Shown here piece by piece: positions 3,984 to 7,802 of a stretch of 48,513 nt of DNA. The stretch spans positions 1 to 48,513 of the forward strand of contig CAYHIR010000005.1 in the NCBI GenBank assembly GCA_964356815.1. Reading direction: 5' to 3'. The notes under the pieces are model-generated. The model ran no database searches. It was not told the DNA's origin and saw nothing but the letters and a program-made list of their open reading frames with translations. Each line of letters starts with the position of its first letter. The stretch's first letter is position 1. This stretch comes from an uncultured Candidatus Saccharibacteria bacterium. Lineage in GTDB: Bacteria > Patescibacteriota > Minisyncoccia > Phycocordibacterales > DATGWK01. The position numbers and the translations under genes were made by a program.

Positions 3984-4015
3984 AAAATTGGCGGCCACGC
4001 GGCCGCAAAAACCGC

Positions 4016-4408
4016 TTACTGCGCCGAGTGCGCCACCGACAAAGGACAACTCGTCTTATCGGCCAATTCTTGAAGTGTGAAAACTTTCACCTCGCGAGTG
4101 CCGTCGGCAAATTCCCATGTTGGATAACCTTTAATGCCGGCGTCGGCGCAGACCGGAAGCGATGGACCCTGCTGGCCGGGTGGTGAGCACTCTATATAAG
4201 GCAAGAGCTTGGCTGATGCACCAAAAACGGCTTTCTGATCTCTACAGTGCGGACACCACCATGCGCCATAAAACCTTACGCCTTTGTCGGCAATACATTG
4301 CGCTAAAGTGTCGTATTTGCCCGGACCAGACGGCTTGGTGAGAATCCAGATAACGCCACCGAGAATAATAAGTGCGATTAAAATGAAAACGAGGGATTTT
4401 AGTTTCAT
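4016..4408 (-). CDS. Membrane-anchored thioredoxin-fold protein (CPHC), likely DsbA-like partner of DsbB
   Basis: N-terminal hydrophobic anchor, FYGAWWCPHC, YIEC and GYPTW (cis-Pro loop); adjacent to dsbB. Confidence 0.75.
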   Translation of the reverse strand: MKLKSLVFILIALIILGGVIWILTKPSGPGKYDTLAQCIADKGVRFYGAWWCPHCRDQKAVFGASAKLLPYIECSPPGQQGPSLPVCADAGIKGYPTWEFADGTREVKVFTLQELADKTSCPLSVAHSAQ

Positions 4409-4435
4409 TAAAACATTATACCAAATATAAATAAT

Positions 4436-5413
4436 TTAGATAAAACCCAATTCATTTATCAATTTATAAGTATTCCCATGCAATAAAAGACCTTTATAAG
4501 AAGCGATGCTTCCCGGTGACTGGTTTTTACTAATATTTTTTATCATTCTTCGCTCAGTCACTTTCCTGACAATTTTATGATCAGAGAAATGCACCCAGCC
4601 AAGAAAATCAACGCCCGAAGAAAAAGTCTTTACAAAAACTTTATCAGGATGAAGTGATAATTTTAAATTTTTTTCTAAAAATTCAGCGATTTTGGGAATC
4701 ATGTTAAGTAAGTGATTCCGATCTTGGTCGAGAATTACAAAATCGTCGGCGTAACGAATATAATATTTTGCTTTTATTTTATGCTTCATGAACTGATCAA
4801 ATTCATTCATGTAAATATTTACAAAAAGCTGTGATGTGAGATTGCCAAGAGGTAGACCAACACCTGGGCGTGTGGAATAAAAACTTCCAATAATTTCTGA
4901 CAAAAGTTTTAATACATTTTTATCCGAAATATACAGGCCAAGAATTTTTAGAAGAGTTATTTGATCTATTGATGCAAAAAATTTGCGAATATCGCATTTC
5001 AAAACCCAAACAGTTTTTGTGTGATTTTTGGATGCCTCAAAAGCAAAAGATTTGAATCGCGCCATCGCTTTATGCGTGCCTTTATTTAATCGACAAGAAT
5101 AAGAGTCAGGTGCGAATGTTTTATCGAAAAAAGTATAAAGTTTTCTGTAAATAGCGTGATGTAATAATCTATCTCTCACACTTGCCTTGTGAATCTCGTG
5201 AAATTTTGGATCGAAAATGGTAAACGGTTTATAAAAAGAGTGAGTGTATGTTTTTGCAACCAAGTCTCTATGAAGCAACATCATATTGCCCATAAGATTT
5301 CGCCCAAATTCTTGCACATCTTTTCGGTTGCGTTTACCATTTACAAATTCACCCCACGCTTCGAGAAGATTCTCGATGGAGATGATATCCTTATATTTCA
5401 GTTCGAAATGCAT
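4436..5413 (-). CDS. DGR reverse transcriptase
   Basis: GLPLGNLTSQLF (GxxxSQ motif), YIRYADDF catalytic motif, RDRLLHHA, KCDIRKFFASID; 325 aa with no maturase or endonuclease domain; next to TR. Confidence 0.95.
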   Translation of the reverse strand: MHFELKYKDIISIENLLEAWGEFVNGKRNRKDVQEFGRNLMGNMMLLHRDLVAKTYTHSFYKPFTIFDPKFHEIHKASVRDRLLHHAIYRKLYTFFDKTFAPDSYSCRLNKGTHKAMARFKSFAFEASKNHTKTVWVLKCDIRKFFASIDQITLLKILGLYISDKNVLKLLSEIIGSFYSTRPGVGLPLGNLTSQLFVNIYMNEFDQFMKHKIKAKYYIRYADDFVILDQDRNHLLNMIPKIAEFLEKNLKLSLHPDKVFVKTFSSGVDFLGWVHFSDHKIVRKVTERRMIKNISKNQSPGSIASYKGLLLHGNTYKLINELGFI

Positions 5414-5453
5414 TTAGTAAAATATTACAACACAAAAAATAAAACCATGAATA

Positions 5454-5462
5454 CCCCCCCCC
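5454..5462 (+). repeat. C9 homopolymer between ATG 5447 and the avd reading frame
   Basis: ATG AAT A CCCCCCCCC GCAAAATTACTCCCA TTG. There are 25 nt between AAT and the avd-frame TTG, so removing one C restores the frame. Confidence 0.85.
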
Positions 5463-5477
5463 GCAAAATTACTCCCA

Positions 5478-5837
5478 TTGTTGCAAAAAATGAAAGAGGT
5501 TTATTTAATCTGGTATAGCTATTATCAAATTCTACCAAAAACACATCGTCACTCGCTTGGTCAAAAAATCGACACTTTATTTGTAGAAATTATTGAAGCA
5601 ATCGCTGTTGCAAGTTTTTTAAATCGCGAAGAAAAACATCCGTGGGTCCGACTCGCAATCCGCAAATTGGATGCTCTAAAAGTATTGCTCATGGTTCTAT
5701 GGGAAACAAAATCGCTTGATAATAAAAAATATATTGCTTTATCACTAAAAATTGATGAGATTGGTCGAATGCTCGGCGGATGGAATGGACAACTAGTAAA
5801 ACAAAACTCCCCCGCCACAAAGACGGAGGAGAAATGA
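5478..5837 (+). CDS. avd: DGR accessory variability determinant (Avd)-like four-helix-bundle protein
   Basis: About 120 aa, helical; LPKTHRHSLGQKIDTLF and EIGRMLGGW motifs typical of Avd; lies between RT and TR. The native start may be ATG 5447 (see findings). Confidence 0.85.
   Translation: MLQKMKEVYLIWYSYYQILPKTHRHSLGQKIDTLFVEIIEAIAVASFLNREEKHPWVRLAIRKLDALKVLLMVLWETKSLDNKKYIALSLKIDEIGRMLGGWNGQLVKQNSPATKTEEK
5798..5831 (-). terminator. GC-rich hairpin plus U tract 3' of TR, embedded antisense in the avd 3' end
   Basis: Minus strand CUCCUCCGUC-UUUGU-GGCGGGGGAG then UUUUGUUUU: a 10-bp stem with two G-U pairs that would be C-A mismatches on the plus strand. Confidence 0.65.
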
Positions 5838-5842
5838 AATGA

Positions 5843-5980
5843 TTTGCGACGGACAAACACGAAACGGTTGTCAGCATTCCAGACATTGTCAGGGTTGCCG
5901 TTGTTAGCGTTGAGCCACAGCTCATCGTTGTCGTGTTCGATGCTGAACACGTTGAGGTTGCCGTTCGAGTCCGTTATATA
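5843..5980 (-). repeat. DGR template repeat (TR)
   Basis: 138-nt ungapped match to 6372-6509; 20 mismatches, all at TR adenines; 11 AAY codons in the target frame. Confidence 0.95.
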
Positions 5981-6215
5981 TAGAGCGCCATCCATGCCAC
6001 CACCCAGCGTGAAAGCTTTTGGCTGATCTTCTGGGTTGTATCGTATTCGGTATCTTAAATACCCTAGCGCTCCATACCAAGTATTTTCATTTTTTATGAA
6101 GTTCTACATAAGCCCTCCGTCCGAAACCGTAATCGCGGACGCTCTCAGCTTATGGATACTGGATTCGGTAGCGAGAAACCTTGATCTCCCGCGCATTCAC
6201 CTACTACCACTTTTT

Positions 6216-6242
6216 ATTTTATCAAATTATAAAAAATGTAAA
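6216..6242 (-). promoter_or_regulatory. Candidate promoter for the TR RNA
   Basis: TTTACA-N15-TAAAAT with TG-A extended -10, immediately after the target-gene terminator. Confidence 0.4.
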
Positions 6243-6268
6243 AGAAAAACCCCGAGCAATGCCCGAGG
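6241..6268 (-). terminator. Intrinsic terminator of the DGR target gene
   Basis: CCUCGGGC-AUU-GCUCGGGG (8 bp with 2 G-U) followed by UUUUUCUUU. Confidence 0.6.
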
Positions 6269-6293
6269 CTGAAGTTTTTCACTACTTCAAAGT

Positions 6294-6363
6294 GTTGCGA
6301 CAAAATTGTCGCGAACTAAGGACTAAGGTCAAAGGATCCAAAAGATCCGAGTGACAAAGTCCT
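6294..6363. other. Stem-loops immediately downstream of VR/IMH (candidate retrohoming hairpin/cruciform)
   Basis: Nested AGGACT/AGTCCT (6319-6324/6358-6363) enclosing GGATC-CAAAA-GATCC (6334-6348), plus GCGACAA-AA-TTGTCGC (6297-6312). The position matches the hairpin required downstream of IMH in characterised DGRs. Confidence 0.6.
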
Positions 6364-6368
6364 AAGCA

Positions 6369-7163
6369 CTACTTGCGACGGACAAACACGAAACGGTCGT
6401 CAGCATCCCAGACATCGCCAGGGTCGCCGTCGTGAGCGCCGAGCCACAGCTCACCGTCGTCGTGCTCGATGCCGAACACGCTGAGGTCGCCGTGCGAGTC
6501 CGCGATAGACTCCGTGGCAATGATGAGCCACTCACCTTTGGGCTGGTCGGTGTACTGCAGGCGCAGTTGCGGGCCAACCTCGTTGGGACAAAGCTCGAGA
6601 CCAAGTTCCTGTGCCTTTGCACAGATTTGGTCGTACCTAGCTCCGTCCTTGAAGCCGAGTTCGGCCACTGACAGGTTGACCAGGTTGACTTCTTGCTCGG
6701 TCTCGCTCGCGGTAAACGCGGGCTTGCCGAGGATGTCGTTCGCCCAGTCGCCGACTTTCATTCCCGCCGCCTTGATGGCAGTGCGAAAACCTGCGGCATC
6801 CTTGATGCCAGTGCCGAGCTTGAGGGTCTTCCAGACCTTCATCGTCGATGGCATCTTTGGGAATGCCCTGTCGAGCAGACCCTTGAGTTCCAAGAGTCGC
6901 TCATAAAGCATCCCGTGCCACGAAACGTGACCCGTCTGACGTTCGGCGAGAAGCGCAAGCGGTCGCTTGAGGGCTTCCTCGAGTTTATCGAGACTGCCGC
7001 TCTTCGCGTCGTTCTTGGTAGCGAGAGTCGTGGTTGCCACGATGACTTCATCGCGAAGCACCTCTCTCACCCTTTCCTCACCGCCGACCTTCTTGACCAG
7101 GGCATTCAATTCGCCACCAGTCAGGTTGGCTATCGCAAAACGCTCTTTCGTTGCAGTCGTCAT
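6369..7163 (-). CDS. DGR target protein with C-terminal variable region (probable C-type-lectin-fold domain)
   Basis: VR encodes the last ~46 aa ending RFVFVRRK; AAGGAG RBS; no signal peptide or TM segment visible. The CLec fold is inferred from DGR precedent. Confidence 0.9.
   Translation of the reverse strand: MTTATKERFAIANLTGGELNALVKKVGGEERVREVLRDEVIVATTTLATKNDAKSGSLDKLEEALKRPLALLAERQTGHVSWHGMLYERLLELKGLLDRAFPKMPSTMKVWKTLKLGTGIKDAAGFRTAIKAAGMKVGDWANDILGKPAFTASETEQEVNLVNLSVAELGFKDGARYDQICAKAQELGLELCPNEVGPQLRLQYTDQPKGEWLIIATESIADSHGDLSVFGIEHDDGELWLGAHDGDPGDVWDADDRFVFVRRK
6372..6509 (-). repeat. DGR variable repeat (VR)
   Basis: Differs from TR by 16 A>G and 4 A>C; ends at the target stop codon after the A-free run CGTTTCGTGTTTGTCCGTCGC shared with TR. 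Confidence 0.95.
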
Positions 7164-7230
7164 GGGAGTCTCCTTGGGCTCATTTGCCCATTTTCTGATT
7201 TCCTCTCATCCGAGGCGGAGCAATGACCGA

Positions 7231-7284
7231 AGTAGTCATAGCCAGAAAACACTGAAAAATCAGGGTCTTTTGGCTATGACTACT
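7231..7284. promoter_or_regulatory. Long hairpin in the 5' leader of the DGR target gene
   Basis: Perfect 14-bp inverted repeat AGTAGTCATAGCCA / TGGCTATGACTACT with an inner CTGA-AAAA-TCAG cap. Confidence 0.7.
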
Positions 7285-7315
7285 CGCAAGTAGTTTCAAT
7301 GTTCTATCTTTTTGT

Positions 7316-7344
7316 AGTATACACCCAAATTGGCTTTCTGTCAA
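7316..7344 (-). promoter_or_regulatory. Sigma70-type promoter of the DGR target gene
   Basis: TTGACA-N17-TATACT. Confidence 0.75.
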
Positions 7345-7367
7345 GCTCACTCAGCTCGGCGGGCATA

Positions 7368-7802
7368 TTAAACAAACTCTTCAAAACATCTCCTCGTCGC
7401 TGGCCAAATGAGCATTTTTTCCATGTCGGATTTTGTAAACCAACCATGATCGGCAATTTCGCTGTCGTTCATGCGCACTCGGCCGGAAGAAATTTCGCAT
7501 AGCCACCAGTGCGTCGTCTGATCCCCCACATCGCCCGGCGTTTCGGCAATTTTTCGCGTTGGACGCACGAGCACATCGAGCTCTTCTTTCATTTCGCGCA
7601 CGAGCGCCGTTTTTTCATCTTCCCCATTTTCCAAATGCCCGCCCGGCGGATACCAATAGCCCGTAAATCGCCCAAAATCTTTTTTCGATTTTATTAAAAG
7701 AAATTTTTCGACGCTCGCCCTCGCGGCGGCGACAGCGTATGCGCCTCTGCCGGCGCCACTTTTAGCTTTTTTAGAAATTATGCCAACGACGACGTGTTTC
7801 AT
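7368..7802 (-). CDS. NUDIX hydrolase
   Basis: Nudix box GGHLENGEDEKTALVREMKEELDV. Confidence 0.9.
   Translation of the reverse strand: MKHVVVGIISKKAKSGAGRGAYAVAAARASVEKFLLIKSKKDFGRFTGYWYPPGGHLENGEDEKTALVREMKEELDVLVRPTRKIAETPGDVGDQTTHWWLCEISSGRVRMNDSEIADHGWFTKSDMEKMLIWPATRRCFEEFV

Follow-up and report, generated by a model that had tools for sequence, protein, structure and literature searches.

The template RNA of a diversity-generating retroelement (DGR) from an uncultured Candidatus Saccharibacteria bacterium appears to end in a hairpin and U-tract that lie just beyond the template repeat (TR), antisense to the last codons of avd. The DGR, a targeted-mutation machine of ultra-small groundwater bacteria, is complete (target gene with variable repeat, VR; TR; avd; reverse transcriptase, RT) in the 48.5-kb (48,513 nt) stretch of contig CAYHIR010000005.1 that was analysed, hereafter the window. 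We read the hairpin and U-tract as the 3'-end module of a ~410-nt, stand-alone template RNA with a permuted arrangement, serving as terminator and as probable docking site for Avd, and we give this reading a probability of roughly 0.7. The elements concerned are as follows.

5831 to 5807, minus strand: terminal stem-loop of the template RNA, with a 10-bp stem and a 5-nt loop, recognized by fold, conservation and covariation.
5806 to 5798, minus strand: U-tract UUUUGUUUU, directly 3' of the stem and antisense to avd codons K108-Q109-N110.
About 5973 to 5843, minus strand: TR, from repeat comparison with the VR.
5478 to 5837, plus strand: avd (accessory variability determinant), an open reading frame with stop TGA at 5835–5837.
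7163 to 6369, minus strand: target gene, an open reading frame with the VR at its 3' end (6373–6507).
5413 to 4436, minus strand: DGR RT (RVT_1, 2.4e-21; GNLTSQ and YADD motifs).

The stem-loop (CUCCUCCGUC-UUUGU-GGCGGGGGAG, minus strand, 5831–5807) starts ~11–12 nt past the TR end (~5843). Seven of its 10 pairs are G-C and two are G-U, it is terminator-like in a consensus scan, and eight of the nine nucleotides that follow are U, which is the shape of an intrinsic terminator. Under stringent criteria the window contains 11 terminator-like sites, compared with 1.85 in shuffles, and the TR hairpin is among the strongest. Its minus-strand fold has an energy of -18.8 kcal/mol (shuffle mean -7.5; z -5.36; 0/200 shuffles as stable), whereas on the plus strand, with both G-U pairs turned into C-A mismatches, the region attains no more than -9.6 kcal/mol. 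The hairpin overlaps avd codons Q109 to the stop (plus-strand reading ...VKQNSPATKTEEK-stop), and U-tract, hairpin and linker together overlap codons 108–119 plus the stop; the Avd tail encoded by the hairpin bases is ...KQNSPATKTEEK-stop. A first-pass annotation, made from the letters of the window, had already proposed a 10-bp stem and U-tract ~11 nt beyond the TR on the minus strand, two G-U pairs that work only on the TR strand, and an Avd tail (QNSPATKTEEK-stop) encoded by the same bases. The first of these is borne out by sequence, scan and folding, the second by the two folding energies and the third by the reading frame at 5478–5837. A bidirectional terminator also serving avd was considered and rejected on the plus-strand energy, the two C-A mismatches and the lack of a U-tract after the stem on that strand. 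An Rfam cmscan of positions 4000–7600 at E <= 1 returned no family match, with one chance snoRNA match elsewhere.

The hairpin is conserved in related DGRs. A profile of 26 RTs led to 80 loci from species-representative genomes, nearly all of them metagenome-assembled genomes of Patescibacteria. In the 55 loci with a callable TR/VR pair, TR and RT share a strand, and only a few nucleotides separate the TR end from the avd stop. Upstream sequence is retained in 75 loci, and 74 of these have avd and RT divergently oriented. Of 72 loci, 64 have a hairpin ~12 nt past the point where TR-VR homology stops, with five or more T among the 9 nt behind it; six or more are present in 59. Most of the remaining loci are detector failures on large loops, and L012, L015 and L069 are ambiguous; L062 is the one locus among the 72 that clearly has neither terminal hairpin nor U-tract. 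The relatives' stems have a median length of ~9 bp and their loops are mostly 4–5 nt, with the consensus CUCYCC, a variable inner stem and loop, GGRGAG and then UUUUGUUUU.

A covariance model of the hairpin built from 14 copies finds one match per locus at the hairpin site and a single spurious match (E 0.82). In the covariance-model alignment the fraction of paired stem cells is 97.4% (shuffles, 79.7%), each of the nine stem pairs varies on both sides, and the covariation score is 0.511, compared with 0.208 in shuffles (0/500) and ~0.1 in slid controls. A model-fitted alignment inflates pairing somewhat; the unaligned raw sequences give the same compensations. The family alignment has 46 G-U cells in the stem and only 12 unpaired ones, which argues that the helix is selected on the TR/RT strand, in RNA or in the corresponding single-stranded DNA. 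In short, the conserved hairpin is an RNA element of the TR strand. The first-pass annotation had suggested looking across homologous DGRs both for covariation and for synonymous sites that preserve the antisense stem, and both comparisons came out in its favor: the stem is conserved with compensatory changes, and avd sites are constrained exactly beneath it.

For the second comparison, 65 avd genes were aligned by codon and third-position entropy was taken among sequences with the commonest residue. Codons 1–106 behave neutrally, with ~0.9–1.0 bit at two-fold sites and 1.7–2.0 bits at four-fold sites. At K108, Q109 and N110, the codons whose antisense is the U-tract plus the closing G, entropy falls to 0.33, 0.19 and 0.00, and at S111 and P112, in the 3' arm, it is reduced to 1.0 and 1.2. 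Constraint at the nucleotide level begins exactly at the U-tract and hairpin and extends no further into avd. This suggests that the U-tract is itself selected, as fits a terminator, and that it is the last part of the functional RNA. The avd product matches Pfam PF22296 (bAvd) at 1e-13 over residues 2–103 of 119, and NF033474 at 2.3e-17. The tail is therefore outside the bAvd domain, and the stop codon wanders (35 loci have it past the hairpin, 25 within), which argues that the protein tail follows the RNA element and not the reverse. The dual coding of the avd end that the first-pass annotation described is thus real, but it looks secondary: an RNA element constrains the synonymous sites, and probably the amino acids too, of a convergent gene's tail.

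The interval between VR and TR, 260–400 nt in the family, is not mere spacer, as it holds a -10 box and ~230 nt of strongly conserved sequence. Its features, and the linker that follows the TR, are listed here in the direction of the minus strand (H, helix; Sp, spacer position in the DGR of phage BPP-1).

6270 to 6248, minus strand: terminator-like hairpin and T-run behind the target gene, from the consensus scan and the stringent terminator filter.
6224 to 6216, minus strand: extended -10-like box TGATAAAAT; family consensus TGnTAnAAT.
6085 to 6092, minus strand: H4 5' strand AAAUGAAA, pairing with the linker; candidate primer-side strand.
6079 to 6084, minus strand: H4/H5 junction AUACUU, invariant alignment columns with an invariant A at 6083.
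6066 to 6078, minus strand: H5 5' strand, pairing with 5978–5989; proposed equivalent of the cPRT-Stop duplex of BPP-1.
6048 to 6037, minus strand: single-stranded motif GAAUACGAUACA, after H6; resembles BPP-1 Sp79-90.
5978 to 5989, minus strand: H5 3' strand, ending a few nucleotides ahead of the TR.
5832 to 5839, minus strand: linker UUUCAUUU between TR and hairpin, the H4 3' strand, holding the antisense (UCA) of the avd stop.

The hairpin and T-run at 6248–6270 divide the target mRNA from the template RNA, and a G+C-rich stem followed by a T-run is also kept ahead of the template-RNA -10 box in relatives. Positions T11, A12 and T16 of this box are conserved in at least 90% of sequences, and transcription of the template RNA would start near 6210. 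The 5' domain (5979–6210, minus strand) comprises ~230 nt of heavily covarying sequence with its own extended -10 and corresponds to no Rfam family. Comparative evidence therefore places the terminal hairpin where a terminator would be, at the end of a unit that has a promoter and is followed by no functional RNA. This comparison lends good support to the earlier proposal that a stand-alone template RNA has its 3' end at the hairpin: the RNA appears to have its own promoter, RT a -10-like box of its own (see below), and constraint stops at the U-tract.

RNAalifold, applied to a plain MAFFT alignment of 44 full-length RNAs, gave five heavily compensated helices, to which H4 and the terminal hairpin were then added. 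The full structure has 60 pairs, with 93.0% of cells paired (73.2% in shuffles) and a covariation of 0.652, compared with 0.258 in shuffles (0/500) and 0.13–0.19 in slid controls. H4 is a long-range helix in which AAAUGAAGA (6092–6085) pairs with UCUUCAUUU (5839–5832), the strands lying ~250 nt apart. Seven of its nine pairs change on both sides, for example AAAAUAAAGU/ACUUUAUUUU, AAAAUAACA/UGUUAUUUU and AACGAAGA/UCUUCGUU, and the pairing is specific to cognate strands (-7.55 kcal/mol versus -5.54 +/- 0.27 when permuted, 0/1000; a repeat of the test likewise gave 0/1000). The linker is 8–9 nt long in the family and the hairpin follows H4 at a distance of 0 nt. Helix 5 has 12 pairs, 96.8% paired, of which 10 change on both sides. 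Since the linker pairs with the 5' domain in H4 and the adjacent H5 closes just before the TR, the TR is looped out between two adjacent helices. H5 is followed by stem-loop H6, the single strand GAAUACGAUACA and stem-loop H7/8.

A local hairpin, UUCAU/AUGAA, around the A-run of the 5' domain appears in the single-sequence fold and was set aside, as 261 of 1000 permutations are as good and it is not cognate-specific. Lineage-specific inserts of 20–50 nt are found in hairpin loops and junctions of the template RNA in L001, L055, L018, L059, L074, L002 and L040, which indicates that these positions tolerate expansion. Those of L001 and L055 are near-identical (CACCCUAAACAAGUA(A/C)AACUUGUCGGGU, alignment columns 227–255).

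What is understood of DGR reverse transcription comes from a single element, that of Bordetella phage BPP-1. In the BPP-1 RNA, TR117-129 pairs with Sp47-56, of which A56 is the priming nucleotide; two nucleotides on, Sp59-70 pairs with 20 nt upstream of the TR, the cPRT Stop; and beyond these lie a short stem-loop, G79 A80 A81, the Thumb Ring (single-stranded) and a bRT-binding stem-loop (Handa et al., bioRxiv 10.1101/2023.10.23.563531). The Avd-binding stem-loop, Sp3-33, separates the TR from the primer strand (bioRxiv 10.1101/2023.10.23.563531). Apart from the 20-nt upstream stretch, all cis-acting RNA elements of BPP-1 are downstream of the TR. Putative stem-loops of the Avd type are predicted just after the TR in 207 of 278 DGRs, including those of the Candidate Phyla Radiation (CPR) (bioRxiv 10.1101/2023.10.23.563531).

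Like the Avd-binding stem-loop of BPP-1, the window hairpin and its relatives follow the template-side strand at the TR 3' end, adjoin the template-positioning duplex, have a 9–11 bp stem with a 4–5 nt loop and occur in Avd-encoding DGRs. Position (0 nt after H4, ~12 nt after TR-VR homology) and shape are thus of the BPP-1 type. The hairpin differs in being the last RNA element, followed by the conserved U-tract, whereas in BPP-1 GGCCUUUCCUCAA and a further 107 nt of spacer come after the stem-loop. It differs also in lying antisense within the avd coding end, and a contact with the Avd pentamer by way of flipped-out bases, as expected of the BPP-1 type, is putative. Nor is it flanked by the template strand on one side and a primer strand further down the chain, since the chain appears to end here and the partner strand is upstream. 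By analogy, the best reading of the hairpin is as the positional equivalent of the BPP-1 Avd-binding stem-loop, not of its priming site.

The likeness extends to the RNA core. Both RNAs have two adjacent helices with the TR looped out between them, and both have a stop strand, stem-loop, GAA, conserved single strand (GAAUACGAUACA here, GAACACGUUACA in BPP-1) and stem-loop in the same order. In 12 kb of BPP-1, searched on both strands, the only match to the GAAUACGAUACA motif of at least 10/12 is GAACACGUUACA at Sp79-90, the structurally equivalent site. The core differs in being circularly permuted, as the elements that BPP-1 carries 3' of the TR in a 140-nt spacer are found 5' of it here, and there is an extra 5' part of ~110 nt (H1–H3) without known counterpart. 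We consider it a little better than an even chance that the template RNA of Patescibacteria (CPR) DGRs in general is a circular permutation of the BPP-1 DGR RNA, with primer and stop strands, GAA/thumb-ring and RT-binding hairpin 5' of the TR, and with the Avd stem-loop as 3' end and terminator, overprinted by the Avd tail.

Under this model, transcription would start at the extended -10 just beyond the target gene's terminator, and the polymerase would pass the ~230-nt structured 5' domain and then the TR, halting at the hairpin by intrinsic termination. The product would be a minus-strand template RNA of ~410 nt, roughly 6210 to 5798. A stop at the hairpin would keep minus-strand transcription from running antisense through avd into RT, which would be produced from its own promoter. 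In the folded RNA the linker would pair with the 5'-domain strand (H4) and the next strand just before the TR (H5), so that H4 and H5 could represent the template:primer and cPRT-Stop duplexes of BPP-1 with the chain ends moved. Occupying the site of the BPP-1 Avd stem-loop, the hairpin would probably also dock the Avd pentamer. Its overlap with the avd tail would arise because avd is inverted against the TR, and the RNA element would dictate the codons of the tail.

Several observations weigh against this model. H4 is only 84% paired in the sequence-based alignment and is missing from the single-sequence minimum-energy fold. The U-tract contains a conserved G and in a subgroup is short (UGAGUUUUG), which suggests that termination may be leaky. 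The hairpin is not absolutely required, as L062 has none and retains H4, and docking of Avd, which is probable by analogy, draws on position and shape. Among sequencing runs, our search matched the window to DNA runs only; neither this locus nor either of two Hainich-type relatives turned up in an RNA run. A 2015 soil metatranscriptome, X15, contains two short contigs of a relative that match window positions 5700–6300 at less than 90% identity, unoriented and at low depth. One of these contigs covers the TR and the other the avd 3' part and the hairpin, and they abut at the linker; relatives are accordingly present in RNA libraries, though without strand or end information. In L062 (L062:3366-3560) the linker pairing is CAUGAAGAA/UUCUUCGUG, and the Avd tail is shorter.

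The alternative that fares best, unlikely as we judge it, is a plain intrinsic terminator or insulator that only keeps the template RNA from avd and RT and has no role in the RT-Avd ribonucleoprotein (RNP). The hairpin shares with Rho-independent terminators a G+C-rich stem of 7–11 bp, a short loop, a U-rich tract of 7–9 nt and a unit with its own promoter. This canonical shape, the conservation of the U-tract at synonymous sites and the existence of L062, which lives without the hairpin and retains the long-range helix, would all be accounted for. The element differs from such terminators in its unusually conserved stem sequence, its location inside a convergent reading frame, the constraint on synonymous sites and a probable additional binding of protein; termination itself is putative here. 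The outer stem CUCYCC/GGRGAG and the fixed zero-nt distance to H4 are far more conserved than is usual for terminators, and the site is that of the Avd-binding stem-loop in BPP-1 and in the 207 of 278 surveyed DGRs. These points favor a terminator that also docks Avd.

Conversely, the hairpin could be an Avd-binding stem-loop only, with an RNA that reads through it antisense to avd and doubles as RT mRNA, as happens in cassettes where TR and RT are co-transcribed. That TR and RT are on one strand, that the U-tract is interrupted by a G and that no transcript ends are observed could be taken in its favor. Such a transcript would be antisense to the entire avd mRNA, no constraint at the RNA level is found past the U-tract, and RT has a conserved -10-like box 7 nt before its ATG, which together make this alternative improbable. 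The box in the window is the following.

5427 to 5422, minus strand: -10-like hexamer TAATAT of RT, 8 nt before the RT ATG.

The first-pass annotation had assigned this TAATAT to RT as its own -10, and the assignment fits a family pattern, TAnnnT, before the RT ATG. Of 56 loci, 20 carry such a hexamer ending exactly 7 nt upstream of the start codon; widening the distance to 3–12 nt raises the count to 29, versus 17% expected. RT probably has its own promoter and a leaderless mRNA, to judge from this motif, in which case there is no need for read-through from the TR.

The part of the first-pass annotation that fails is the proposal that the hairpin is a priming module. On this proposal the hairpin or the RNA just 3' of it would prime cDNA, for example by folding of the U-tail back onto the A's at the TR end. 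The primer of BPP-1 does come from RNA 3' of the TR (bioRxiv 10.1101/2023.10.23.563531), and the U-tail could pair with GCAA. The linker's covarying partner, however, sits in the 5' domain, the hairpin and U-tract have no covarying partner of the kind expected of a priming site, the G of the U-tract included, and nothing beyond the U-tract is constrained; we regard priming from here as very improbable. The properties of a priming-type strand are found instead at 6085–6092 together with the junction 6079–6084, which makes the 5' domain the probable site of the priming strand, rather than the hairpin or the RNA beyond it. By analogy with A56-G57-C58 of the BPP-1 spacer, the junction, with its invariant A at 6083, is a candidate for the region of the priming nucleotide. 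We also considered that the U-tract might pair with the 5' A-run, its G opposite the C ahead of the run, and dropped the idea because G replacements show no compensatory change.

The repeat ends themselves show a constant pattern. In nearly all loci the TR ends ...GCAA-C-U and the VR ...GCAA-G-U, a Lys codon plus stop (5843–5848 and 6372–6377 in the window), and this contrast is a fixed difference between the initiation of mutagenic homology sequence (IMH) of the VR and its TR counterpart, IMH*. The two A's of GCAA never differ in the VR. About 8–10 loci have CGAAAC in the TR where the VR has CGCAAC/G, a pattern that may put the start of the cDNA 1–2 nt to the 5' side of the AA. The window has an extra A after GCAA, and the possibility that this A was adenine-mutagenized in the VR was rejected, as the VR has G there in nearly all loci regardless of the TR. 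The position thus reflects the IMH/IMH* difference and is uninformative on the cDNA start.

Guo and colleagues are said to have described, in 2011, a GC-rich inverted repeat downstream of the IMH in the VR, BPP-1 reportedly having none after the TR-side IMH*. The window element does not belong to such VR-side hairpins or cruciforms, since it follows the TR and its G-U strand asymmetry points to RNA. A DNA-level signal of this kind (a cruciform or recombination marker, comparable to the hairpin behind the VR IMH of BPP-1), or conservation merely through the avd protein tail, has a negligible probability: GC-rich inverted repeats adjoining DGR repeats are known (Wu 2018, PMC5758913; reportedly also in PMC3240598) and the arms encode conserved residues (KQNSP...GEK), but the hairpin is on the TR side, its 46 G-U cells are tolerated on one strand only, synonymous positions are frozen, the stop codon moves within the element, and the protein tail lies outside the bAvd domain. 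On the VR side, just past the target stop, the minus strand has an imperfect long inverted repeat at 6290–6368, AGGACUUUGUCAC..GGAUCUUUUGGAUCC..UUGACCUUAGUCCU, followed by GCGACAAUUUUGUCGC. Two of its pieces, CUUAGGAC and CCUUUGA, are conserved after the VR in relatives, and the repeat may be a target-recognition hairpin of the VR.

The cassette has the hallmarks of a DGR. All 17 differences between TR and VR are at TR adenines, a restriction also seen in 55 related loci, and a DGR-type RT is present together with an avd that is inverted between TR and RT, convergent with the former and divergent from the latter. The RT family search gave at least 8000 matches, and relatives of the RT are annotated as Patescibacteria/CPR. 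The order and orientations (target/VR, TR, inverted avd, RT) are those of architecture B3, 'TR-(avd)-RT', which makes up 90% of the CPR DGR set in the survey of Wu et al. 2018 (PMC5758913). That survey, in its available portion, differs in sorting DGRs by gene order only, and that portion gives no description of a TR-RNA end overlapping avd, of a terminator or of a 5' RNA domain.

In B3 DGRs avd is inverted directly after the TR, which makes the BPP-1 layout impossible. The hairpin probably marks the end of the RNA and, by implication, places the other elements upstream. B3 gene order and post-TR stem-loops are already known. Relative to the accessible portions of the literature, the terminator form of the stem-loop and the avd overlap with frozen synonymous sites are new, as are the proposed end of the functional RNA at the hairpin and the permuted layout that it implies. 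The analysis yields a testable structural model for the B3/CPR class of DGRs, a natural example of an RNP core on a permuted RNA, and promoter-to-terminator boundaries (~410 nt) with which a CPR DGR could be reconstituted or engineered in E. coli. If the permutation is correct, the RNP core can accommodate a differently wired RNA chain, and nature holds a compact, self-contained DGR RNA that runs from promoter to terminator.

A homopolymeric G:C tract of variable length (7–17 nt) lies between avd and RT in 50 of 56 relatives and is represented in the window by nine C's on the plus strand (5454–5462). In L036, L037, L048 and L074 the same site carries tandem repeats, (GATTGCT)n or (GGCT)n, and the homopolymer looks like a slippage-prone contingency locus. 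Alone among the fetched loci, L041, of the same RT clade, has its cassette arranged differently, with the Avd match on the RT strand ~1.6 kb upstream and a TR-like repeat on the opposite strand. Just upstream of the target gene in the window, between this gene and a strong promoter-like site at 7344–7316, positions 7231–7284 form a 25-nt inverted repeat that is 88% complementary with a 4-nt gap.

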